64,000 nucleotides of DNA from Haliotis cracherodii (Eukaryota). Shown here piece by piece: positions 1 to 30,992 of this stretch (its first letter is position 1; each line of letters starts with the position of its first letter). The stretch is from assembly GCF_022045235.1 (NCBI RefSeq), contig NW_027266297.1, positions 50,902,001 through 50,966,000 on the forward strand. The letters are read 5' to 3'. The translations under genes and the position numbers were made by a program. The notes beneath the pieces were generated by a model that saw only the letters and a list, made by a program, of their open reading frames with translations, made no database searches and was not told the origin of the DNA.

Positions 1-219
1 CCATATGGCAAAGTTTAACTGATTCTGCCAAAATTGCATCGGATTGTGAAACCAATCGTGCACCATTTTATCGCTAGTTGCAGTGACCCTGTATTTTTCA
101 AAGATATCAGGGAATTCAACAAAAAAATCAGCACCTGAGGCACGTACTAAAATCGACTGATTAGTAATGTATCTTGATTTCATATTTATGTTATGATATA
201 GTATCATTGTATATTTAAT

Positions 220-897
220 ATGTATGTCACACTCCGGGGAATAACAAATGGTCAGTCTATTGAACTGCTTCATACTATCGATAACTCGGATGGACAACTT
301 GAAGTCGCTATCTGTGATGTTACGTATTACCCGAGGTGGACCAATATAAATGATGCAAGACGTAATAATATATTTTCACTATTAGGTAGTATTGAAAAAT
401 ACATTATTATACCTGATGGGTATTACAGCGTATGCTCTCTCAATGATGAAATTTTTAAGCCTTTCGGAGCTAGTCTCACACAAAATGAGTCGAATGGGAT
501 GTTGAAATTAGACACTGGAGAAAGTCAAGTAAGGCTTTACACGAACTTAGCAGTTACACTTGGATTTGCACTCGGAGATATAACAGTAATCAAAACATCA
601 GCACAGGGAGTTAAATTACCCGATTTCGTTCCCCATAAAGAGTTGTGCATCCCTCTTGATCAAATCAGTACGACGGATAATATTCAACTAGAAAGTCCTT
701 CAATTCTACTCAGATCTATTACAGTAAAAGATGAAAAATACAATAGCGATAGAACGGACTCTTTCCCAACATTACAATACAAAAAATTAAAGCGTGGTAT
801 TATTTCAGACCTCAAAATTTCTGTATTAGATGTAAAACACCAACCTGTACATATAGGATACTTGAGTGTAACACTCCATATTATAAATAATGGTTGA
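220..897 (+). CDS. Polinton/adintovirus-like minor capsid (penton-like) protein, 225 aa
   Basis: Intronless open ORF with a beta-rich pattern. 'IPDGYYSVCSLNDEI' and the C-terminal 'LQYKKLKRGIISDLKISVLDVKHQPV...VTLHI' resemble the Polinton/PLV minor capsid pattern as I recall it. The stop overlaps the next ATG at 890. Confidence 0.6.
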   Translation: MYVTLRGITNGQSIELLHTIDNSDGQLEVAICDVTYYPRWTNINDARRNNIFSLLGSIEKYIIIPDGYYSVCSLNDEIFKPFGASLTQNESNGMLKLDTGESQVRLYTNLAVTLGFALGDITVIKTSAQGVKLPDFVPHKELCIPLDQISTTDNIQLESPSILLRSITVKDEKYNSDRTDSFPTLQYKKLKRGIISDLKISVLDVKHQPVHIGYLSVTLHIINNG

Positions 898-1661
898 TTC
901 ATCAGGCCCTGGAACACTCAGACAATGTAATACAATTGCAATTCCGATCTCGGAGACACAGAAGGATTCGGTAGACCCGGTACCAATGGTAAGTTATACG
1001 CTTTACACTTACAAGATAATGTATACAAGCGGAAAGAAGTTACATTCACAGGTAATCTAGGCGATTTAAGCGATGTCGACGTTGTTAGTAGACTCCTTAA
1101 AAAAATCACTTCGTACAATCTTACAACGATGATAATAAATGGACTATGGTCGAAGCAAATATCGAGTGGCTACTGAATATCGTCATTACCCCACCGTATG
1201 TGATGATGGGTAAGGCACATAATTTAACTAAGATAATAAATAGTGGCATCGTACTCGCGGCTTATATCCCATCAAAACGAAAAAGTGTGTTAGTCTCTCC
1301 CCTGCCAGAAAACCCAGGTCATATGTTATATAGTCGTCCAGCAGTAAAATATGTTAGTTTAAATTTGGTTACTGAATTCAATGAAATTAAACAGAACTCG
1401 AGTGCAATACCTAATCTTTCTATGCTTATTATTGAAATATTACCAGGCCAATCGATTAAATGGCAAAAGAAACACGAGCGTCAACGTTGTAGTATTATTC
1501 ATATTGGAGCTTCACCCGTTGCAACCCTTGAGGGGGTACAAATTATTAAAAGTGACAGCATTTCTCTTACTAAGATATTCTTGCCATATAATACTCATTT
1601 AATAAGGTTCATGTATACTCTCAAAACATTTAAGCAAGATCAATTAAAGACTATTATATGA
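890..1661 (+). pseudogene. Frameshifted virus-like ORF, possibly fibre/spike-like
   Basis: ATG at 890 overlaps the ORF1 stop. Reading across the A-run near 1099-1105 gives 'LGDLSDVDVV...SYNDDNKWTMVEANIEW', which joins ORF 1146-1661. Its TGA overlaps the next ATG (ATGA, 1658-1661). Confidence 0.35.
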
Positions 1662-2297
1662 CCGTAATATTAAAACTGAGTTTATATCCGGCGCTCGATG
1701 AGGCATTTGAAAAGATGGATACTGTTGATGGATTTCGATTACATCAAATAAGCGACATAAAACATCGAATAGAGAAGGAAAGGGAGTTGAGACTTGGATT
1801 GTATAAAAAGTATCACAGAGCCGTGAATGCTCCGGACGGAGTTGACACCGCGCTTCTAACAGCTGGCATGGGACTCGGTGTAGCCGGTGTTGGTTTATTA
1901 TCAACTATAATTGCCGCACCTATCGTACTTGGCATGGAAATAGCAGCTGGAGTCTCAGGACTGGCAGGAATAATGATAAAATTCATTTCCTCGTAGGTTG
2001 CAAAAGAAAGCATTAAAACACGATAATATTTGGATACTCGCCGAAGCAAAGTTGAACAGCATTGAGGATCATATTTCAACAGCAATGGCTGATTGTAAGA
2101 TATCCAAGGAGGAGTTTCATTTAGTGCTGTCAGAACTCACCAAATACAACGCAATGAAGCAGGAGATTCGATCAACATCTCGTAAGACCAGTGGTATTAG
2201 CTAAGACGAGAAAAAAAAGTTCATAGAACAGGGGAGGCAACAAGCGCGTCAATTATTCCGTGCCAAAACCAAAGAACTGGTTGGAGATTTAAAATAG
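1658..2297 (+). pseudogene. Polinton/adintovirus-type hydrophobic-hairpin membrane protein, disrupted
   Basis: Contains 'FRLHQISDIKHRIEKE..R..LYKKY' and a Gly/Ala-rich hydrophobic hairpin. Removing one base near 1991 restores 'FISRRLQKKALKHDNI..LAEAKLNSIEDHISTA..D.KIS.EEF'. The frame continues past an in-frame TAA (2202-2204) to TAG at 2295-2297. Confidence 0.6.
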
Positions 2298-2352
2298 ATT
2301 GCTTACTATTGTTAGATCACATTTAGACAAATGCTTACATAAATATATAATA

Positions 2353-2694
2353 ATGGAGAATTACAAACCAACAAAGGAAGAACTCGAAAAAGCTATCGAA
2401 ACATTTATGCTCAGGGACAAAATTATCAAATGGAGAGAATTACCACAAGGTATATATTATATTTGTGATGTCAAACCAACTAAATACGGTTATCAATTGT
2501 TTCTTACCAATTTCCAAAAAAAGTATATAGTCTGGTCTCCTAGTAAAATGAATGAAGAACTTAATAAAAATGTTGAATATAGCTTTGTTCAAAATAATGG
2601 TATACGTATTAATAAAAATAATAAAGAATATTTTCATTACAATTTAGTCTCATCTGTACTAATGACATCATTGATTGACTCCAGGTGGTTGTGA
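2353..2694 (+). CDS. Small virus-like hypothetical protein (113 aa from ATG 2353)
   Basis: AT-rich intronless ORF on the same strand and directly downstream of the cassette ('IIKWRELPQGIYYI...TKYG...YIVWSPSKM'). Confidence 0.4.
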   Translation: MENYKPTKEELEKAIETFMLRDKIIKWRELPQGIYYICDVKPTKYGYQLFLTNFQKKYIVWSPSKMNEELNKNVEYSFVQNNGIRINKNNKEYFHYNLVSSVLMTSLIDSRWL

Positions 2695-3846
2695 GCTAGA
2701 GTCAATTTAACTTAATCTCATGAGTATTGTTGAACATCATAGTCATATACACATAAAAAATGCCACCTGTACTGGTGATATAGGTATATAAAATATGGTT
2801 CCAGTGGAAGTGAGCCAGAATCACCATTACCTATACTACTTGATGTTATTTTAATCGCAGATTAATTTCCACTGTGCGGCAATTGGTTTCATCTACACAA
2901 GGGTGTTGACTCTTTTGCCACCTAGTGGCAACCTATCGGTAACTGATCAGTGATGAGGTGATGATCGACCGGCACTTCATCGGCGACTGGTTGTCGATCG
3001 GTTGCAAAGTGGTTTCCAAGAGTGTATCGATCATTCACCGTTGGGTTTGCAACATGTCACCGTCTATAAAAAGACCTGTCTGTTCGTTAAATTTCCAAAA
3101 ATTAAATATAAGCAACCCCTAAAAGCCCCCTCTTGAGTTGCACACACCACTTTCAGCCTTTTCGCAATATACTAAATGGCCCGGCCAGGCCTGTGTGCGA
3201 AATACGCTACAGTCGGAAAGCGCATGTTAAATCTCCAATATCAGTCAGTCAGTCGTTACAGCATCATTTGGTCATAAGTATTCAGAGAGTTCACATCAGT
3301 TATTTCCATTCATCACTATGGTCAGTAAAGGTAGGAAAATTAAAGAACCAGAAATTGTAGAAGATACAATAGAGAAAACTGCTGTGGTGCACAGGTCTGC
3401 TACAATTGAGCCAGAACCAACAACATCTCAACAAAGGAAGAGTAGAGGGAGCCAGGTTTACTGGGTACTCTAATTGTGACTTGCCTTCCATCTATGGCTC
3501 GAATTTGTCACTCAATTGGCGCCACTCTTCAGGTGTTGAGGGTGTCTTCATTACTTCATCACCATACTCTTAGATGATGGTTACTCAAACTTCACGAACA
3601 AATACTGATATTGTGTTGTGTGCCACTCTGAATGAGACAAGGCCGATATCAGGGGACGTCCCAAGGTCAGGTTCAACGGAAAAGAAATTTGCAACAATTT
3701 CAATGACCAGGGTTGTGCCAGAAAAAACTGTCTGTTTGAGCATGTCTACTTAACATGCAAGGGGCCAAGCCACGGGAAAAAACAATTGTAGTGACAAGAG
3801 AAAGAAGGTTTGACTGGATACCACCCCTAATGAATCCGCCATACCC

Positions 3847-5280
3847 ATGGAAACAGTGAGCACATCATCTTTACTCACTCCTATTAACCACGCCCGGTTA
3901 CAACTCGAACTGGCTCTTCATCCGGATATCCAGTTCACCAACTATTTGATCAATAGTCTAAGATACGGTTTCAACCCTTTAATTCATCCACTACCCACAA
4001 CTTCCATAGAGTGCAACAACAATTACAGTGTTAGAAAAGCCCAGGATACAGTGTCACTTCTTGTCAAATCAGAAGTTACAAAGGATTATGTTGCAGGTCC
4101 ATTTTCGACAGTGCCATATGCTGTATACAGGGTGAGCCCCCTCGGGTTGGCCATTGGTAAATACAGCCAGAAGAAGAGACTGATTCCAGACCTATCAGCC
4201 CCCTACGACAAACCAGAAATACTAAGCATCAACGAACTCATCGACAAAGATCAGTGTTCTCGTTCTTATGTGACAATTGACCATGCTATCGCTATCATCT
4301 CTAATCAAGGGCGTGGCGCCAAACTGTGTAAACTTGACATTTCGGACACTTTCAAACAGGTCCCAATAACAAATGCATTTATACCTTTCTTTGGATTCAA
4401 GTGGCAACAGCAGTACTACTTTTACAAACGGCTGGCCTTCGGATGTCGGTCAAGCCCAAAATTGTTTGTCACTCTGTCAGAAGCTTTATGCTGGATACTG
4501 CATCATAACTATGGCATTCAACACATTCTCCATCTCCTGGATGATTTCCTTACTATAGACTGCCCTGAAGCCGATGCCCAACAAACCATGACCAACCTGC
4601 GTAAACTGTTCCAAGAGATGTGCATCCCAATAGCCGAGCACAAGACAATGGGACCTGCCACAACCTTGGAATACCTGGGCATTAATCTGGATACCAACAG
4701 CTAGCCTACCACAAGATAAGCTGGACAGGATATCAGCCTTACTTCACGAGTTCTCCCAGGCAAGAAATTATACAAAGAGAGAACTCTTATCTTTATTGGG
4801 ACACTTAAGCTATGCTTGTAAGGTCATCATTCCCGGCAGATCTTTCATTTCTCACCTGTTGGATATAGCCAAATCAGTGAAGAAACTGCATCACCAGATA
4901 CATTTGTCTACAGCGTACCTACTCACATTGAAGATTCTCTCGCCTTCCTCGAACTGTATCCCATCGTAATAGCATCCGTACTTTGGGGACATAGTTGGAC
5001 TCGGTTAAGAGTATTATTCCATTGTGACAACCAAGCCACTGTACACATCATTCGCAAAGGGAGATCTAAATGCCAAAAAGTCATGTCTCTTATGCATACC
5101 CTAACACGGACGGCAGCAAAAGGCAATTTCATAGTATTAGCTAAGCACATCCCTGGGGTGCACAATGCTTTAGCTGATGCTCTTTCTCGTTCACAGCTGG
5201 ACCTGTTCCGCTCCCTACCCCCCGCAGCCCAGATCAAACCCATACAGTGCCCTCCAGCCTCTCAAATCATGTGGAATTGA
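3847..5280 (+). pseudogene. Ngaro reverse transcriptase and RNase H (frameshift/stop at about 4704; part of RNase H apparently deleted near 4920)
   Basis: RT motifs 'RVSPLGLA', 'KLDISDTF', 'LAFGCRSSP', 'HLLDDFL', 'EYLGINLD'. RNase H motifs 'LELYPIV..W....VLFHCDNQA' and 'HIPGVHNALADALSR'. Confidence 0.9.
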
Positions 5281-6266
5281 CAAGGCACCTGGACACATTA
5301 TGGTCAGCAGCCCTTGCCTCGCGGACAAAGGATACCTATGCTACTGGTGTTCAGTGCTACATCAACTTCATGATTAGTGTGAATTTGCTCACCAGGACAT
5401 GTCCAGGACTCCCACCGCTACACGAAAGCTACGTTCAGTTTTTCCTCGCCCACTGCTTCGGCAAGCTCAAGCTATCCTATACTACCGTTAAAACTTACCT
5501 GGCGGGCATCAGATATACTTACCTAGAAGCAGGAATACCAACACTCTTCGACTCTACCAACTCGGGCGCCAACGCACGTATTCAAACTTTTCTGCGTGGA
5601 TACAAGAAACTACAAGCCCCACCAAAAAGCAAGAGACTACCCATCACTTACAATATTCTGTGTCAAATTATCACTCTGCTGAAGAACGGCGTTCTGGGTC
5701 CTTTTAATGACTTTATCATGATTACTATGTGTACCGTTGCCTTCTTCGGCTTCCTCAGGTGTGGCAAGTTCACCTGTTCAGACAGTTTTGATGCAGATGT
5801 CAATTTATGTGTCCAAGATGTCATCTGCGATTATAACAGAAACAGATGTATCCTCACATTGAAAACTTGAAAAACTGACCCTTTCCGACTAGGAGTGGCC
5901 ATTTCCCCGTTTGCCACAAACAAGCCAGCTTGTCCGGTTTGAAGCCTCTCACAACTGATCCTCATAAGACGCAAGTGCGGGGCTCAGGCCCACGATCCCC
6001 TCTTCGTGGACAGCCGTTTCCATGCTATTACAAGGACTACATTTCTAAGATGGCTCAACATTATCATGTGTCGGATAGGCTTGAGCTCCAAATCTTATTC
6101 AGGACATTCATTCAGGATTGGCGCAGCTACCACGGCTGCACAAGTGAGAATGGAGGACCATCTCATCAAAACCCTGGGAAGATGGAGTTCAGACTGCTTC
6201 AACAGGTACATTCGAACCCCGGAAGATACCTTGAGACAAGCACAGATCTCCTTGTGTAACGTATAA
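5247..6266 (+). pseudogene. Ngaro tyrosine recombinase (internal stop 5868-5870 and frameshift)
   Basis: 'AFFGFLRCGKF', 'LK.*KTDPFR.G' and 'YSGHSFRIGAATTAA...IKTLGRWSSDCFNRYIR' (R..HxxR..W..Y). The HSFRIG form is typical of Ngaro. Confidence 0.9.
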
Positions 6267-7690: not shown

Positions 7691-9250
7691 TTACAGATGG
7701 ATCTGCCATGACAAGCAGTTACAGTAGATTTTAACTTCCATCACCTGAGTGCCACACATTTAGTAGGCATATTGAACATTTATTGTTTATATTTCATGTT
7801 TGTTTATGCCACCAATGTGTGTGGATACTATTGGCATATTTCATATCATGATTAGTACTGTGATATTCTATTTATAATGTATTCATGTCCTAGTATAAGC
7901 TATATATTTGTGAACTGTATGTATGTATACTTTACATCTGGTACATATAAGTGCATTCATGCAGTTTAAGTGATATGTATCACAGAGATAATGATTTATG
8001 TGTATTCATCAAAACTAAGTTCTGAATATTATATATGGAGAACACCTTGATTAATGTGGTGAATGCATTTTAATCATTAAATCAATAACGGTGATATGTG
8101 CATGAGATTTACACCACCCTAACCTGCTACAGACCTGAGGCCCTAGGATACACGGCATGGGTTTCCATTACAGGGAACACTAACCAGGCAAACCCTCAAC
8201 AGCAGATGGGCCATTGCATATCAAACTGTACGTGTTGCACCAACGTTGATTTGGATTATTTGCACATGCCTATATGCAAGGAATCAGTGTATGGTTCTTG
8301 GTAGTCGATCACTTAGTATAAATGTTATATCATGATAACTATATATTACCTAAGTTTTCCTATAATAATTAGATCCACATCAAGTGCTTTTATGAGTTAT
8401 CATGGTGTAATATTTATACATCATTTCATAAAATTATACTTTAGCAAGTAATACTTATCATCAGGTAAAATGCATATATAAAATATCAGTAGTTTCAGTT
8501 GTAACTTTTTAGATAGAAGCTAGCCTAAGGTAATGGGAGTGCATCTCCTAGACATACTATTCAATAAGACAAGAGTTATGTCTACATAGTTTAATAGATT
8601 TGAAGCTTTTAGATAAATCCTAACCTAAGGTATCAAGACCCCATCTCCCAGACAAAAGATATGTCTACATAGTCTTATAGATTACCTTGAACTATTTTAT
8701 TTAAGTAAATCTGTCATCACCTATATTAGAATAACATTCAGCAATTACTTCAATCTAGACTCATTAAGGATTAGCCCCAATACAAGCTCGTCTGTAGTGA
8801 CACCATACCCGGTAATCTCTTTCAAAGCACCCAGTAAATATGTCAACAAGATTAGTGCCAGTCCAACAGGATTAACAGGATTAACAGGATTAAGTATTCC
8901 CCACTGTCTAGCCATTCATTAACCATAAGGCACAGCCCATCGTGTATCAACCAATCATATTCCTTTTTATTGTTCTAATTTTTGTTAAAGACATACAAAA
9001 GCCAAATGTTAAGCAGAAGGGGTTTGACGCTCATACCAGGCAGATCTCTCTCACAGTACCGACTCTCTGTGGCACCCTCAGCTATTTTCTAAGATATTGT
9101 AAATTGCTCATTGTTAATTGTTCTTGTAGGTCTAGGTTGAGGCTGTACATCAGCTGGCAGGGTGACTGAGTCGCTCCAGTAATTTTGGCAAAATTACTGG
9201 CAATAGGGTATTTTCGTGTCCCAAAATGTTTGCCATCATCTTTTTGAAGT

Positions 9251-10394
9251 ATGCCAGACGTTAGAATGAGCGACGAATTAAAAAGTAAACCAAAGAAAAA
9301 GAAGGCCTCCTCGGATAGCGATTGTCAACTACTGCACAAAATGGCGATGAACAGCCCGACACCCACAAGCGGAGACTCACCAACTGTTTTTTCTCAACAA
9401 CACTTGTCACAAGCTATCCCTCAAGGATACCTATCTACACGTACAAACCCGCAACTAGTTGGTATGTACCAGCCCTACACCCATCCTAATTTAATGACAA
9501 ATGTGCCTTATTCCTCGCTATACAGTGAATCTGACAAAATGGGAGGCCCTTTGTGGGTGAAAGAACTTTTCAAAGAAATAGCTGATGTGAAAACACAAGT
9601 CTCCAAAATTGATGAAGTAAACAGTGAACTCTCTAAGATTAAAGTGCATTTGTGTACTCTTGACCACAAAGTGCAATTAATTGAGACCATGAAAACTTCA
9701 GTGTCAGACTTGGAGAAAAGTGTCAACTTTATGAATTTGCAGTTTGAAGATTGGCGGAAAGAGAAAGCGGAACTAGAAGTAAAAATAAAAGATGTACAGG
9801 ACAACTTACAGTCTAAGAATTTCGAATTATTGCAGTTTCATCAGTTGCAATTGAAAGAAGAAGTGATTAATCTACAGGTGCGTTCAATGGCCACAAATTT
9901 ACTGTTCATGAACATCCCTGAAACAAGCTCCCCTACAGAAGATACAACTACTGTCTTGACTGACTTCATTAAACAAAAAATTGATATATCTGATGCTCAT
10001 ATAGAGAAAGTTCACCGTCTGGGGGGATTCAAAGGAGGTAATCCCAAGCCAAAGACCAATCATTGCCCGATTTCGGTCAGTCAAAGATAGTGACAAGGTG
10101 AGATACGCTGCATATGGAAAGTTGAAAGGTTCTCCATACACAGTTGCAGAGCAGTTCCCTGATGCCGTGAGAGAGTACCGGAAGTTGGTTCTGTACCCTT
10201 TGATGAGACAAGCCAGAACAGATAACAAGAAATGCCGTATTGTTGTGGACAGAATCTACATTGATGGCAAACAGTTCTTCCCGGATACCTCTCCCCCATA
10301 TCGACCACCCCTACCCAGGAAAGAGTTCACCATGGCCACCCGTTCTCCACTCAGTGTACACCCTTCAATGGATACCTCGAACCCGAGAACATAG
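9251..10394 (+). pseudogene. LINE ORF1 (coiled coil plus RRM-like domain), frameshifted near 10050
   Basis: Long coiled coil, then 'RSMATNLLFMNIPE', 'IEKVHRLG', (frameshift) 'PRPIIARF', 'VAEQFPDAVREYRK', 'RIVVDRIYIDG'. Confidence 0.82.
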
Positions 10395-10589
10395 GACACT
10401 CACAGCGGACACTACCCACAGCCTACTGTCAATGCTGAACAATCAGAAAACCAATCTAATAGAAATAATAACTTGCCCCTAGTTTACCATAATACAAGTG
10501 TTGATACAATCTCTGATACCAGTAGCTTGTATGGAAATGGATGAATATACAGTGAAGTAAGTGTACAAAGTAACCCCAATAACAAACAA

Positions 10590-13500
10590 TTGAAAGTTTT
10601 ATCTCTAAATGTTTGTGGATTTCGTAGTAAGTTAAAATATCCAGAGTTTCATAAACTTCTCAATTCCTGTGATATTATTGGTCTACAAGAAACCAAAACA
10701 GATGAGTTGGATGTTAGTATAGACATCAAAGATTATACTGTTATTCTCAAAAATAGAAACACGACAGGTCGAAGGTCAGGAGGTCTAAGAATTCTCATTA
10801 AAAATGAAATAGCACCTTACTGTTGTCCCATCTGACAGTGATATATCCTTGTGGATACGTATCAATAAGGTAATGCTAAGTACAGATGTGATCTTTGTAT
10901 TGGATTTGTTTATATCCCACCTGTTAACTCTAGGTATGCAAGCGCCGTCATTTTCAGGATTTGTCAAGTGATATTCTTAATATACAAGATATTACAAGAT
11001 ATTTCTATCTTTTAGGAGATTTTAATGCCCATACAAGTATTCTTGAAGATACATGTGTCATCAACACCACTGTTAGCCATTCCATTGGTGTAGAGGACTC
11101 TGAGATGGAGAACTTTAAAAATGATGATATTTTTTAATTAAATTACGTGTCGCCACTAAGAGTCTCTCAAGACAGGTCTGAACCAAACAGACATGGTCGT
11201 CAACTCATTGAAATGAGTAAAACTTTACCTCTTCTTATATTAAACGGAAGATTGGGAAAAGATAAAAACATCGGTGCTGTCACCTGTAAAGACTGTAGTG
11301 TTATTGATTATGTTGTGTCATCGTATGAAGCTGTCCCTTTAACCAAAGACTTTCAGATCTTGGACTTTGATTGTTTATATAGTGATGCTCATTGTCCCCT
11401 CCAACTGACTTTACTACCTGAGGTACAGGCAGCTGACACTTGGCAAGAGCTACCTGACACCTTCTAACGAGGGGAAGCCACGACGATTCGATATGGACAA
11501 ACGACAACAGTTCGTGACAGGTGTTGACCTCGCACGCATCAACTGCATGACAGAAAAAGCAAGTGCTGCACGTGAGGGTCGAGGTGACCCAGTTGCTGTT
11601 ATCGATAATGTTGTATCAGAGTTAAACACATTGTTTGTGAATACAACTGGTGATGTGTTCGGTACTATGAAAAAACAGCCCATAAGTTCAAGCTTGAAAA
11701 TAACTTTCATAAATGGTATGACCAAGATTGTCGTAATATGAAAAGAATATACAGGAAAAAAAGAAGAAAATTAAAAGTTTCAAAAAACCCTCTAGATACA
11801 ACAAGTTAATAAAGACTACAAAAGAATCTTAAAGAAAAAGTATTTAAACCATGTGCATTTTATGAAAGGCAAGTTTTCTTATATGGCCCGTCACTATGTG
11901 AAAGGTTTTTGGAAATATTTTAAAGATAAACCTGGCCCTAGCTCCAAGAATGTCTCATTTGATGAACTTTATAACTACTTTAAAGACATTAATAGTGCTA
12001 CAGATGAAAGTGACTGTTTTGTAACACAGCCAAACGACATTGATAATGATCTCAACAAAAGCTTTGACACTAAAGAAATATAAGAAGCAATTAATAAACT
12101 TAAAAATTAAGAAAGCATCAGGTATAGACATGATTGAAAATGAATATATTATTTCAGCCAAATCTATTCTTTTAAAATTGTATTGCAAACTGTTAAATCT
12201 AATTTTACAGACAGGACATTTGCCTGAACCGTGGTTAATGGGAATGATCAAACCAATTTATAAGAAAATGGGGGATGTTTCCAAACCAGAAAACTATAGA
12301 CCAATAACCATTTTATCCTGCCTAGGGAAATTGTTTACAAGTGTTATCAATCTGCATTTAACACGTTATGTTGAAAGTAATGAAATACTATCTAAAGCTC
12401 GAGCGGATTCCGTAAAGGATACTCTACTGTTGATAATGTCTACATTTTGAATAGTATCATTGAACTATTGAAATATTCAGGTAAAAAATTATTTTGTGTT
12501 TTTGTCGATTTTCAAAAAGCCTTTGATAATGTGTGGAGGAATGGACTGTGGCTTAAACTTGTAAGCTATGGTATTTCAGGAAAATTATTTACTCTTATAA
12601 GGAATATGTACAATGATATTAAGTCATGTATTTGTCTAAACGGTCAAATATCAGGTTTTTTCAACTGTGGTGTCCGTCAAGGAGAAAATCTGTCGCCTTT
12701 GTTATTGGCTATTTTTTTGAACGACATAGAAACCTATTTGCAATCTAATAATTGTGATGGTATCAACATTGGTACACTTAAACTTTTCCTTCTTTTATAT
12801 GCTGATGATACGGTGCTCTTTGCTGAATCCCCTGAAGGTCTACAGCACTGTTTCGATAATTTCGAGAAATACTGCACTGAATGGAGTATGCGAAAAACAA
12901 AGGTTATTATCTTTGGCACTTCTGCAATTATTCTGCGTGAGAAAAGGTATGTTTTTAAAATTCATAATGTTGAACTAGATAATTGTGATTGTTACACTTA
13001 TCTAGGTATAAAGTTTTACGTATACATGAACCAAAAATTTAACCAAGCCATAATATCTCTTAAGGAACAAGGACTTAAAGCTATGTATTATTTGTTATCC
13101 AAAGCTAGAAACTTAAATCTACCATTAGATTGTTTATTCATTGCGTTCGACCACGTGGTTGTTCCAATTCTTCTATACTGTTGTGAAGTCTGGGGCTTTA
13201 CAGGCTCTTCTATAATTGAAAATGTCCACAAGTTGTTTTTAAAATTATGTTTAAGATTACGTCAGAGCACACCCACTTATATGCTATATGGCGAGACAGG
13301 TCGCCTACCACTCGATATTATTGTTAAAAAACGAGTATTGGCCTTTTGGTGCAACCTGATATTGTCACAAAATTTAAGTAAGCTCTCTGTTGTCATGTAT
13401 AAGACTTTATATCAAAAACACTGTAATGACATTTTTCATTTACCTTGGTTGTTATACGTCAAAAACATTCTGGATAGCTGTGGTTTAAGTTATGTTTGGC

Positions 13501-13927
13501 ACATTCAGACAGTAAATAGTAAAGAGTTATTATTAAATCTAGTGGAACACAGATTAAAGGACCATTTTCTTCAAAATTGGCACAGTGCCCAAACAGCATC
13601 ATCAAAAGGTTTATTTTATAGTTGTATAAATCCCAACTTTAGTCTAGAACAATATTTATCTTATAGCGTAAATATCTCCATTCCCTTGCTAAAATTTCGA
13701 ACAACTAATCATTTTCTACCTGTAGAAACAGGGAGGTGAAAAAAATATACCATTTGGAAGACGACTATGTCATTTATGCATTTCCTCTGTGGGAGATGAA
13801 TACCACTACCTGCTCAAATGTTAATAATGAACGAGAACAATATCTCCAAGAATATTACTGTACTTATCCAAACTATCATAAGCTTCAACAGTTAATGACC
13901 TGCCCAAAGATTAAGAAAATTGAGTAA
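10590..13927 (+). pseudogene. LINE ORF2 (APE endonuclease-RT-zinc knuckle), multiple frameshifts
   Basis: EN motifs 'SLNVCG', 'GLQETK', 'GDFNA', 'SVIDYV', 'SDAH'. RT motifs 'NYRPITILSCLGKLF', 'FVDFQKAFD', 'GVRQGENLSPLL', 'LLYADD', 'YTYLG'. C-terminal 'FRTTNHFLPVETGR...RLCHLC...GDEYHYLLKC'. Confidence 0.9.
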
Positions 13928-19189: not shown

Positions 19190-19234
19190 CTGCATTAAGC
19201 CGTACTTTATTTCAGCCTCAATGAAGTCATGATC
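19190..19234 (-). CDS. SCYL2: SCY1-like protein 2-like pseudokinase, coding exon 4 (45 nt)
   Basis: ttttatttcatttcag|DHDFIEAEIKYGLMQ|gtagga, phase 0/0. Matches the SCYL2 'DVETKYGLLQ' segment. Confidence 0.85.
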
Positions 19235-27692: not shown

Positions 27693-29169
27693 TACTCACA
27701 CGCAAAGTGGTTTTAAGCAAATAGGTAACAAACACGGAACCATAAATTGATACGAGTTTTAGCATGTAGCGAAGCCTGATGGTGTTATCAATATTTTGGC
27801 TGCATTTTGGAGGCCCCGAGTAAAAACGCAACATAAACAACGAATCACCAAAACGCACTATTTCAATGAATATGTGGATATCATGCACCCATATATCGCG
27901 AAATCGAAAATACACGAACTGTCACGAACTGTAGCCGATTCTTGGACCTACCACTCCTTGGTCAACAATGCCACCACGCCTTACTCAAATTCAGAGAAAC
28001 CAGGCTATCGGACGTTTGGAAGCTGGAGAGTCTGTCCAAGATGTTGCCCGTCATTTCAACGTTAACATAACCACAATTTACCGTCTCCTGCATCGATACA
28101 ATGCTACACAGACCACAGATGATCTTCCTCGGAGCGGTCGTCTTAGGGTCACCACACCTCGACAAGATCGGCAGATTACCCGTCAACACCAGCGACATCC
28201 GTTCCTAACTGCAAGTGAAAGTGCTCGACAGACCATAGGAACACATAATCGACACATTAGCCGGGACACTGTGATCCGACGTCTCCGTTCCAACAACCTC
28301 AGATGTCGCCGACCAGCACGTCGTCCTGTTCTCCAACCATTTCATCGACAAGCACGACTTCAGTGGGCACAGGGTCATCACAATTGGCGTCATCGTGAGT
28401 TGAGGCGTGTCATCTTCTCTGATGAAAGTCGCTTTTGTGTCTCCCATGCAGACGGAAGAGTCAGAATTTGGCGGCGTCGAGGTGATCGTTTCACTGACAG
28501 AAACGTTGTGGAAAGGGATCCATGGGGTGGACCTAGCGTCATGATATGGACAGGGATTCGACTTAATGCGAGACATGGACCCATGTGCTTTCTGAATGGT
28601 GGTCAAGGTCGGGGACACGGCGTCATTGTTCAGCGGTATATCGACCAAGTGATCAAACCCGACGTTGTTCCATTTTTTGCACAACATCAACAACACATTT
28701 TCAGCAGGACAACGCTCGTCCCCATGTTGCCAGAGCTACCATGGCCTTTCTGCAACAACACAACATCCGTGTTCTACCGTGGCCAGCCCTCAACCCTGAT
28801 CTGAACCCCATCGAACACTTGTGGGGTGAGGTTCAACGGCGTCTGCACAATGTGGGCCCAGTCCCTACAACTGCTGATGAACTACGCACAGCTGCTCTGG
28901 ATGTGTGCAGGAGGATCCCTAGGGCCTTCATAAATCGTCTGATCCACTCAATGTACAGGAGATGTGTGGCGATCAATGCTAATGGTGGTCACACCAGGTA
29001 TTGACTGACATTTTGCGTATTGACCCGAAACTGTGTAAGGCCTTAACATTTGAAAAAAAACAATTATGTCATCTGCCTTTTAATCCATTAAACTGTCTTC
29101 AGTCAAATTTTTGTCAATATATATAAAATAAATAAATAACATGCATACTGCATACTCGACTTGTGAGTA
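27693..29169 (+). mobile_element. Tc1-like DNA transposon, copy A (DD34E; transposase 27968-29004 with one frameshift near 28700)
   Basis: HTH region, 'PRSGR', 'FSDESRF', 'QQDNARPH', 'NPDLNPIEHLW', 'NGGHTRY'. TA-flanked termini TACTCAC...GTGAGTA. Both TIRs are internally shortened. Confidence 0.92.
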
Positions 29170-29670: not shown

Positions 29671-29770
29671 CTTAAGCTCTTGAGGAACAGGTGCTGCGAT
29701 GCGTTCATAGTTTCCGAGAACATTGGATAAACTTCCTATGACTGGTTCAGTTGCAAATGCCAAACTGTCA
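29671..29770 (-). CDS. SCYL2: SCY1-like protein 2-like, coding exon 3
   Basis: ttccag|T-DSLAFATEPVIGSLSNVLGNYERIAAPVPQELK|gtgagt, phase 2/0. Matches SCYL2 'DCLAFCTEPVFASLANVLGN'. Confidence 0.9.
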
Positions 29771-30831
29771 CTGGAACATAAAAATAGTAGGACCAAACAA
29801 TGTGTCATGTCCTTGGTACATTACGTGCTATAATATGGATAGAATAATGTTAAAAGTGAAATAAAGCTTCGATTTGTTCATTGAAAACAGTGATCTTCTA
29901 TGCTTATCATGAAATGCAAATGTAAAAACATTGCCATGATGAGTTTATGACAAGGTTACAAGGTCAGAGCCAGAGTTGTTACATCATAAACAAACAGTAT
30001 TAGTTACAAGGATCAAGTATGATAGAGGTACTTTTCTTGTTCACAAAATACCTTAAGTTTTAAAGACGAGAAACCATTTTCATATCAAGCATGCACGTTT
30101 TGGACTTATGATATTTAAGTATGGCCTATATGCGGGGTAAAGACAAACACTGACTTGAAGGTAAATCAGAAACATAATGAAATCAGAATGAGTCAACGAC
30201 CTATTGATGTACAGAAATAAAATCAGCCTTTTTGAAACATTTTAGCCTTTCCTCTTTAACCATTGACGTCTTAGCTAAGAACATGCCAGTAAAGCGTCCA
30301 ATTGCTATTCATATTTCCCATCTGATGGTTTCATTATCATTTGTAAATATTTTGCGTTTTTCTTCAATTATGAAGATCCTGTGGGCCAATACGGGCCCTC
30401 ACACTGAAACCAATTAGTTTTAATTGAATACGAGATGTTGCAGGTAGTATATGTTAAGCATTTAGATATTTTGCATTGAAAGTTGTTACACGAACATATG
30501 TACACTGGCGCAAGGGGTGCACACCCAACCTTTTTTCAGACGCTAATGTCGGCCTGACAGTCCCTCGGTTATTCTTGCTCAAGTTGTGACTTGGGTAATA
30601 TACACCCCCAGTGCTTCAATATCCTAGATCTACTTCTAAAAATGCTTGTCAAGGCAAATCACCTGGATGTAAATACAGGTAAATGTATTGTACCAAAAGG
30701 GTTATTAAACACAAATTCATGTAAAGATAATACACAGGAACTGATGTATGTGAATTGACGCTGGTGCCTTTAATGTGAAAATTGCTTTTTAACTAAGTGC
30801 AGAGTGACACAAAATAAGGAAATGTACCTAC

Positions 30832-30992
30832 TGGCACTCCTCGACTCCATGCATTACTGACAGTACATTGGGATGGCGAACATGTTCCAGTTGATTAACT
30901 TCTTTCCGGAGAAGTTCAGATACTGTCTCACGTCGCCGAGGTTTGTGAAGTTTGTCTGCAATCTTTTTCTCAAAAAGAAAGACAGATGCTTC
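30832..30992 (-). CDS. SCYL2: SCY1-like protein 2-like, coding exon 2
   Basis: attaag|EASVFLFEKKIADKLHKPRRRETVSELLRKEVNQLEHVRHPNVLSVMHGVEEC-CA|gtaggt. 161 nt, phase 0/2. Confidence 0.9.

Follow-up and report, generated by a model that had tools for sequence, protein, structure and literature searches.

The stretch of Haliotis cracherodii DNA considered here, 64,000 nucleotides long and referred to throughout as the window (G000:C34:50902001-50966000), carries in its first 3 kb four intronless reading frames, all on the plus strand at 220-2694, which we call ORF1 to ORF4 and which make up the right arm of a 19,556-bp Polinton/Maverick copy whose remainder lies leftwards. An earlier note on this DNA had described a co-oriented, intronless block with overlapping stop and start codons, and its coordinates and overlaps are borne out: the ATG of ORF2 at 890 overlaps the TGA that ends ORF1 at 895-897, and an ATGA at 1658-1661 joins ORF2 to ORF3. 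The frames are not chance, because ORF1 and the ORF3 fragment each match at least 150 places in the genome. The features of the element, and a flanking host exon, are as follows.

1..183, minus strand: 5' part of an element gene (~430 aa in unbroken copies, with a C-terminal hydrophobic segment and no family match) that runs on left of the window
174..219, plus strand: short AT-rich spacer before the penton gene, a close copy of which precedes every further penton in tandem arrays
220..897, plus strand: ORF1, intact, 225 aa, predicted penton (minor capsid protein), present as a single copy in the window element
890..1661, plus strand: ORF2, broken; ~270 aa in unbroken copies
1658..~2297, plus strand: ORF3, broken; 201-204 aa in most unbroken copies
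2353..2694, plus strand: ORF4, open, 113 aa, extending into the right terminal inverted repeat
2667..2840, no strand: right terminal inverted repeat (TIR), 174 bp, ending ACTACT, 93% identical to the left repeat at L011:3285-3458 (G000:C34:50885285)
2841..2845, no strand: 5-bp target-site duplication, identical to the five bases before the left terminus
19190..19234, minus strand: host exon of a kinase-like gene, right side of the element-bearing intron; the next exon lies at L011 ~1510-1653

The reading that we favour, and hold to be probable though by no means assured, is that the locus is the decayed right arm of a high-copy Polinton/Maverick family that makes 5-bp duplications and bears one to three tandem predicted pentons, whose outer (crown) domains were likely exchanged, likely because a varying surface was favoured. 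It builds on the observed termini, duplication, gene order, copy number, arrays, crown types and dN/dS contrast, together with a predicted penton fold and crown position.

The element and its family

The earlier note had run the feature on to 2930 and had missed the right TIR at 2667-2840; the element terminates at 2840. Its two 174-bp TIRs show 12 differences and carry the termini AGTAGT..ACTACT, the same end motif as part of PMC8097293 reports for vertebrate Mavericks. Nor are the frames marked by AT-richness, as had been claimed, their GC content of 35-38% being like that of the surrounding window DNA. The same element goes on in the 20 kb leftwards, where the earlier note had recommended looking; we find there the left TIR, an rve integrase, a fragmented polymerase (pPolB), small membrane-protein-like frames, an A32 ATPase, a capsid-like frame and two frames of ~400-430 aa without assignment. 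The proposed Polinton context is thus upheld by the TIRs, the 5-bp duplication, the rve integrase, pPolB, the A32 ATPase and the predicted penton.

The integrase matches PF00665 above cut-off in a natural copy (E 4.5e-9) and at E 3e-7 in the fragment of the window element, and the ATPase matches Pox_A32 above cut-off in other copies (E 1.5e-10 and 5.5e-10). The polymerase is a 1246-aa frame with 41% identity over 1099 aa to a long polymerase-like frame of the Maverick-type contig L182, and it shows by eye what we take to be family-B motifs. It has no PF03175 match and no PDB sequence match; its N-terminus gives two Rho_N repeats and a weak endonuclease VII match in Pfam with no OTU, an OTU-like domain having been assigned to the pPolB N-terminus by structure prediction in part of PMC8502044. 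The major capsid frame, of 443 aa, is conserved and adjoins the ATPase; its Capsid_N match (E 5.4e-5) falls just below cut-off, it has no PDB sequence match, and it matched none of the capsid frames of L182, L180 and L119 among the 40 frames compared. Similarity of the ATPase to those of the same three is confined to the Walker-A region or absent. L180 and L181 belong to a separate, adenain-bearing Polinton type in the same genome, whose capsid protein is unrelated in sequence to that of the window family.

No adenain was found in the family: the proteases of the other Polinton type gave no match at E 1 in any family locus, a search that a very divergent protease might escape, and no peptidase family matched among the conserved frames of the element. 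PF00770 (adenain) has four matches in the genome at E 0.001, and the two that were fetched belong to the other Polinton type. Because no adenain was found, the label "Polinton/adintovirus-like" given earlier stands in its first half and is doubtful in its second, if adintovirus is meant strictly. A recognisable protease is recorded for 74% of Repbase Polintons in part of PMC4028283, and Polinton-like viruses (PLVs) other than Gosseviruses are said, in part of 10.64898/2026.06.19.733378, to lack a protease as core gene. The family's place may be among those animal elements that have been put outside the main Maverick groups (PMC10120064; part of 10.64898/2026.06.19.733378).

Interruptions in each of its integrase, polymerase, ATPase, major capsid, ORF2 and ORF3 mark the window copy as dead. 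Comparison with two natural unbroken copies shows ORF2 to be frameshifted near 940 and near 1120 and to have three in-frame indels, and ORF3 to be frameshifted near 1990; ORF3 also meets an early stop near 2202. The claim that decay was recent holds only loosely: the two TIRs have diverged at 12 of 174 sites, whereas most of 20 other pairs have diverged less (median identity ~96%), and the left part contains frameshifted genes and a nested retrotransposon. The latter, ~5.3 kb from L011:9880 to L012:5175, has reverse transcriptase and tyrosine-recombinase-like frames, and a separate ~540-bp insertion (L011:7377-7914) interrupts the polymerase gene.

Genome-wide, the terminal 14-mer has 797 forward and 753 reverse exact matches (1550), against 15 and 8 (23) for a control, which by arithmetic amounts to at least about 760 two-ended elements, roughly 10-11 Mb or 0.9% of the assembly. 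Other terminus pairs are spaced 12-17 kb apart. Among 20 pairs drawn from contig C1, the 5-bp duplication is exact in 14 (two of which represent one duplicated insertion) and present in 17 allowing one mismatch, and one of the 20 has a duplication of 6 bp; in every pair one end carries the integrase and the opposite end the ORF1-4 module, whole or in part. Polinton target duplications are given as 5-8 bp in 10.1101/2023.08.22.554363. TIR length differs among copies (~120, 150-175, 210-220 and 290 bp at the L079-L118 termini) because the right repeat reaches different depths into ORF4. At L025:7454 two element termini stand back to back with two bases between them, and L078:7145-8588, on the minus strand ~7 kb right of the window, is the ORF2-4 arm of another copy in opposite orientation. 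The termini are clustered, 85 of the first 100 listed on C1 falling within G000:C1:38.7-44.0 Mb, and the top matches on other large contigs seem clustered too; on C1 this possibly reflects centromere-near targeting or retention.

Pentons and their crowns

A profile search finds 427 relatives of ORF1. Since profile searches with the penton alignment found no Pfam family (0 of 107) and no PDB sequence, the penton assignment rests on fold. The AlphaFold2 model, built from a 107-row alignment, has a pLDDT of 96.3; Foldseek places the mavirus penton at the top (E 7.8e-9), followed by adenovirus penton bases and the Sputnik penton, and a second, independent aligner scores PBCV-1, mavirus and Sputnik chains at Z 11.3-11.6. 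In BFVD the highest rows are taken by a Tetraselmis viridis virus S1 protein, by adomavirus LO5 and by named minor capsid proteins. The suggestion that ORF1 is penton- or minor-capsid-like is therefore sustained by pentons at the top ranks in both PDB and BFVD, and the modelled single jelly-roll passes the refutation test that had been set for it beforehand. Residues 38-133 alone align to an adenovirus-derived ADDobody chain (Z 6.2, rmsd 3.0, 95 residues), which we take to be the adenovirus penton crown. ORF1 is thus predicted to be a penton with a single jelly-roll and an inserted crown domain (~residues 38-133, window ~334-621), and two hypervariable stretches lie within this domain. No penton or major capsid protein (MCP) relatives were found in IMG/VR, and one distant penton was found in JGI metagenomes (L119).

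Penton genes were counted in 79 elements, 60 anchored on ORF3 and 19 on termini; 22 with unbounded arrays were dropped. The 57 bounded elements comprise 27 with a single penton, 29 with two and one with three (30/57 with two or three), and two more triple-penton elements were fetched on purpose, beyond this count. The repeated unit is the spacer plus the penton gene, ~715-730 bp. Among 48 unbroken pentons amino-acid variation is limited to residues ~43-62 and 93-131, within the crown. For adjacent pentons (31 pairs) the median difference is 21% across the crown and 7% across the jelly-roll, as it also is between pentons of separate elements. We rejected recent simple duplication as the origin of the arrays, only one of the 31 adjacent pairs having crowns within 5%.

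With a 12% cut the 94 copies sort into 39 crown types (other cuts give 30-52; Chao1 ~68), and all 26 measurable two-penton elements carry two different types. Recombination is indicated because elements with near-identical ORF2 carry different crown sets: in 28 pairs of two-penton elements with ORF2 within 3%, pairs that are not mutually independent, 18 share one crown type, 8 share none and 2 share both (once in reversed order). Crown distance hardly tracks ORF2 distance (rho 0.14, as against 0.42 for the jelly-roll). It is likely that crown domains have been exchanged between elements by recombination in the conserved flanks, and the simplest mechanism would be that different elements undergo unequal crossover inside the conserved spacer and jelly-roll. 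An adenine-directed mutator resembling diversity-generating retroelements (DGRs) was considered and set aside, variability being alike at A, C, G and T columns (0.31-0.41) and the element having no reverse transcriptase of its own.

These properties can be set against those of known systems. Polintons/Mavericks of group 1, or Beta adintoviruses (PMC8502044, PMC8097293), share with the window family the AGTAGT..ACTACT TIRs, the rve integrase, the A32 ATPase, a major capsid protein (putative in the window family) and a penton with an inserted domain; the divergent pPolB without PF03175 match, close to that of canonical L182, and an ORF3 relative in L182 are further points of likeness to Polintons/Mavericks. 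Unlike group 1, the window family has no adenain that we could find, and neither its capsid protein nor its ATPase shows a recognisable closeness to the counterparts in L182, L180 and L119. It also differs from vertebrate elements as partly documented, with a duplication of 5 bp rather than the reported 6 bp and ~760 or more copies where the vertebrate median is 8. That invertebrates can bear large Polinton/PLV loads has already been described in part of 10.1101/2025.04.19.649669. The Aquintovirus-like (PLV) elements of bivalves, octocorals and hydrozoans (part of 10.64898/2026.06.19.733378; cnidarian MCP outliers in PMC10120064) are similar in having an animal host, a non-canonical capsid module and no protease found.

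Two penton genes per genome and a DE-loop insertion domain also occur in adintoviruses (Buck et al., part of 10.1101/2024.03.25.586562) and in Trimcap-B PLVs (part of 10.64898/2026.06.19.733378). Those duplicates, to the extent the two sources cover them, come from a few single genomes, whereas here one to three pentons occur within one family in one host, with different neighbouring crowns and reassorted types. Human adenovirus species D offers a parallel in which two hypervariable stretches in the outer penton domain are exchanged by homologous recombination within a conserved frame (review, PMC6141750, in part). Adenoviruses differ in having a single penton gene and no integration, and in recombining in co-infected cells, whereas hundreds of integrated copies could serve as a donor pool here; the window family is not a member of Adenoviridae, and one of its genomes may carry several penton variants. 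In the literature searched, which left out most subscription papers and Repbase, we found no report of within-family crown shuffling in Polintons. The window locus alone is ordinary, and the same literature gave no precedent for the family-level pattern, in which a Polinton of high copy number and apparently without a protease carries mixed tandem pentons whose crowns can be exchanged.

Possible selection on the crown and competing explanations

Maximum likelihood puts dN/dS at 0.35 in the jelly-roll (0.21 once single-copy codons are masked), at 0.32 in the major capsid (22 copies) and at 1.43 in the crown (2dL 14.7 relative to a value of 1); pairwise counts give 0.57 for ORF2 and 0.29 for ORF3. 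In the variable stretches, variability at codon positions 1, 2 and 3 is 0.37, 0.38 and 0.27, the reverse of the jelly-roll. A site test (M1a/M2a) favours a class at dN/dS 3.3 (2dL 67), and freeing the dN/dS of the fast class is significant over all 83 crown columns (1.69, p 1e-4) and marginal in the second half (2.44, p 0.017). Values of 2.1-2.9 for the variable stretches were set aside, those stretches having been picked for variability. The firm conclusion is that the crown is freed from the constraint acting on the rest of the capsid: its variable sites diverge three to four times faster, synonymous sites included, it changes length in frame, and it is reassorted. Positive selection on the crown is suggested by these data, and selection for novelty is likely, not demonstrated.

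Several observations weigh against reading the crown as a favoured, varying surface of a particle. The pairwise crown dN/dS is 1.26, with an interval of 0.98-1.63; where four alignments agree, on 59 stable crown columns, the value is 1.03-1.11. For these columns a fast neutral class (~3.8-fold rate, dN/dS 1) gives a better fit than a class under positive selection, which weakens the M1a/M2a result, and nothing is gained by letting the dN/dS of the fast class vary (p 0.6). Site tests can moreover be inflated by recombination. The major capsid call depends on a sub-threshold Pfam match (Capsid_N E 5e-5), and, no adenain having been found, capsid maturation would differ from that of canonical Mavericks. 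The copies were sampled non-randomly, as top matches or from one contig; and no particle, free genome or transcript has been seen.

In a stronger form of our favoured reading, which we put forward tentatively, the family would be a protease-less animal Polinton lineage with a surface-variation system, in which the integrated copies form a library of at least 39 (an estimated ~70) crown alleles that are recombined into arrays of one to three genes, and particles would display mixed, quickly replaced vertex domains that host receptors or defence select. In the favoured reading itself, the elements would replicate by their own protein-primed polymerase and insert by the rve integrase, as is established for Polintons; unequal crossover between different elements would yield the mixed penton arrays; the element genomes would be packaged into particles; and host receptors or defence would act on the crown. 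It has long been debated whether animal Polintons form infectious particles, the arguments to date resting on the conservation of capsid genes. A conserved capsid core combined with a hypervariable, swapped outer vertex domain in mixed tandem arrays resembles surface-exposed viral proteins, and we regard the pattern as a hint, not proof, of spread as a particle that must keep altering its surface. If the surface-variation reading is true, it would amount to evidence, at the genome level, that an animal Polinton of which no virions have been observed still passes through an extracellular, infectious stage. The pattern names a specific domain, a natural allele set and a host in which particles and binding partners may be sought, and the family may offer a tractable case among animal elements whose capsid module is non-canonical, a poorly described group.

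The most serious competitor, which we nevertheless judge rather unlikely, accepts the same element and the same shuffling and dispenses with selection for novelty: old, unconstrained crown loops would drift and recombine neutrally, and the arrays would come from crossovers and confer no advantage. The dN/dS near 1 on alignment-stable columns and the better fit of the fast neutral class agree with it, as do the raised synonymous divergence in the variable stretches (0.31-0.34 vs 0.16-0.19) and the sufficiency of a single penton in about half of the elements. Neutral drift accounts less well for codon positions 1 and 2 being more variable than position 3, opposite to the jelly-roll, for the dN/dS of 1.7-2.4 favoured in the full crown and its second half, or for length changes that preserve frame (crown lengths are divisible by 3 in 82 of 94 copies, over 16 different lengths). 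The lack of any same-type pair in two-penton elements might seem to count against it as well, but is expected under free shuffling alone, the chance of a random same-type pair being 5%.

It is also conceivable, at a low probability, that the family lives in the manner of a protist Polinton-like virus or virophage, its crown tracking a helper or target giant virus and its SLATT-like ORF3 acting in abortive defence or lysis. The missing adenain, the capsid/ATPase module with at most Walker-A similarity to three canonical-type elements, the Tetraselmis viridis virus S1 protein as the penton's best BFVD match, and an ORF3 fold closest to invertebrate iridovirus proteins all lean this way; furthermore, some bivalve, octocoral and hydrozoan ATPases are placed with Aquintoviruses in part of 10.64898/2026.06.19.733378, and SLATT proteins are listed as possible abortive-infection or egress factors in part of 10.64898/2026.10.13.758929. 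Yet nothing points to a helper virus, the polymerase shares 41% identity over 1099 aa with its counterpart in a canonical, adenain-bearing Maverick that also carries an ORF3 relative, and SLATT membership of ORF3 falls below every threshold. Least probable of all is a host-domesticated or purely intragenomic relic whose structural genes no longer form particles and whose diversity is left from many separate past invasions: many copies are broken, the clusters of copies described above lie in repeat-rich blocks, and antisense small RNAs match the module, but backbones only 1-8% apart bear crowns ~22% apart that are reassorted among the closest backbones, which requires exchange during the family's spread, and the capsid genes are under purifying selection that strengthens when single-copy changes are masked (jelly-roll 0.21). 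In cyprinid Mavericks every core gene has been described as under strong purifying selection by whole-gene branch models (part of PMC8097293), unlike the crown here with its dN/dS of 1 or above.

Accessory genes, host intron and neighbouring sequence

A fibre, as the earlier note suggested, is a candidate role for ORF2. The frame has three relatives at 35-83% identity, with N-terminal LxDLxD repeats common to them and conserved even in two distant homologues. One of the three, P0125, is labelled as from a Candidatus Thiodiazotropha metagenome bin and is likely host animal DNA in that bin. No sequence match to ORF2 was found in Pfam, PHROGs, PDB, phages or the fibre-like frames of L182, and its best Atlas score, 0.84, is at chance level. 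At L035:1204-2637, on the minus strand, ORF2 and ORF3 are joined in a single 478-aa frame, probably by a chance frameshift.

The ORF3 model, from a natural unbroken copy and 118 rows, has a pLDDT of 76 and is an all-helical hairpin of two long helices with a hydrophobic turn; hydropathy exceeds 1.2 over residues 49-103, spanning the turn, in keeping with the two hydrophobic helices of a SLATT 2TM hairpin. Its best viral fold matches are uncharacterised invertebrate iridovirus proteins (E 1e-7 to 1e-6), and five SLATT-named rows appear in BFVD at E 0.25-0.54; the PDB fold rows are BAR domains and other generic helical bundles (Z 12 or less), which are uninformative for such folds. Six of 118 family members match NF033634 (SLATT_1; best E 0.009) and two match NF033632, unrelated families scoring alike, and no SLATT stands among the best 25 Pfam rows. 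The only ORF3 relative found in IMG/VR, at 44% identity, is in the adenain-bearing Maverick-type contig L182. The earlier proposal of a GasderminX class found no backing, in that no gasdermin- or GasderminX-named row is among the best 50 in either fold search, though absence from such lists is not exclusion. GasderminX is defined by similarity to the gasdermin C-terminal domain, and SLATT is a separate label in coral and Hydra elements, in part of Starrett et al. (PMC8502044). Given this separate label, the weak SLATT matches and the missing gasdermin row, SLATT-like is the better lead for ORF3, neither being established. The only match to ORF4 is phrog_24842 (function not known) at E 0.004. 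The labels SLATT and SSDBP stand side by side in the text of Fig. S2 in part of PMC8502044, and from that order ORF4 could be a single-stranded DNA-binding protein, a candidate that no search supports.

Small RNAs from two libraries of one study with the same species label place 14 and 110 reads on the module, nearly all antisense. Most are ~31-38 nt and fall at window 942-979 on the minus strand, at the start of ORF2, with a sequence that differs from the window copy and matches some other copy. Though sparse, they fit piRNA-like silencing of the family.

The location inside a host intron, which the earlier note had thought probable, is confirmed at the level of sequence by AG/GT-bounded, phase-0 exons of one apparent minus-strand gene on either side of the element. 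Exons with AG/GT ends lie at window 45141-45290, 30831-30992, ~29671-29770 and 19190-19234, and then at L011 ~1510-1653 and L069 1443-1658; those flanking the element join in phase 0 across a putative intron of 37.5 kb, so that ORF1-4 are antisense to the host gene. The last host exon has weak kinase matches only (E about 1), all 22 of 22 rows being kinases, and the gene is presumably SCY1-like. Sequencing runs presumed to be RNA place reads over repeats and none on host exons; they behave as low-coverage DNA and are uninformative on transcription or splicing.

Other mobile elements share the window. To the right of the element end, in the same intron, 3814-6266 on the plus strand holds the decayed remains of a DIRS/Ngaro-type retrotransposon, in which reverse transcriptase, RNase H-like and tyrosine-recombinase frames can be read. 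Judging from motifs in the translations, we take three regions, at 27935-29004, 40921-42016 and 54577-55603, to be decayed Tc1/mariner-like transposases, and 9248-13739 to be a decayed LINE-like element.

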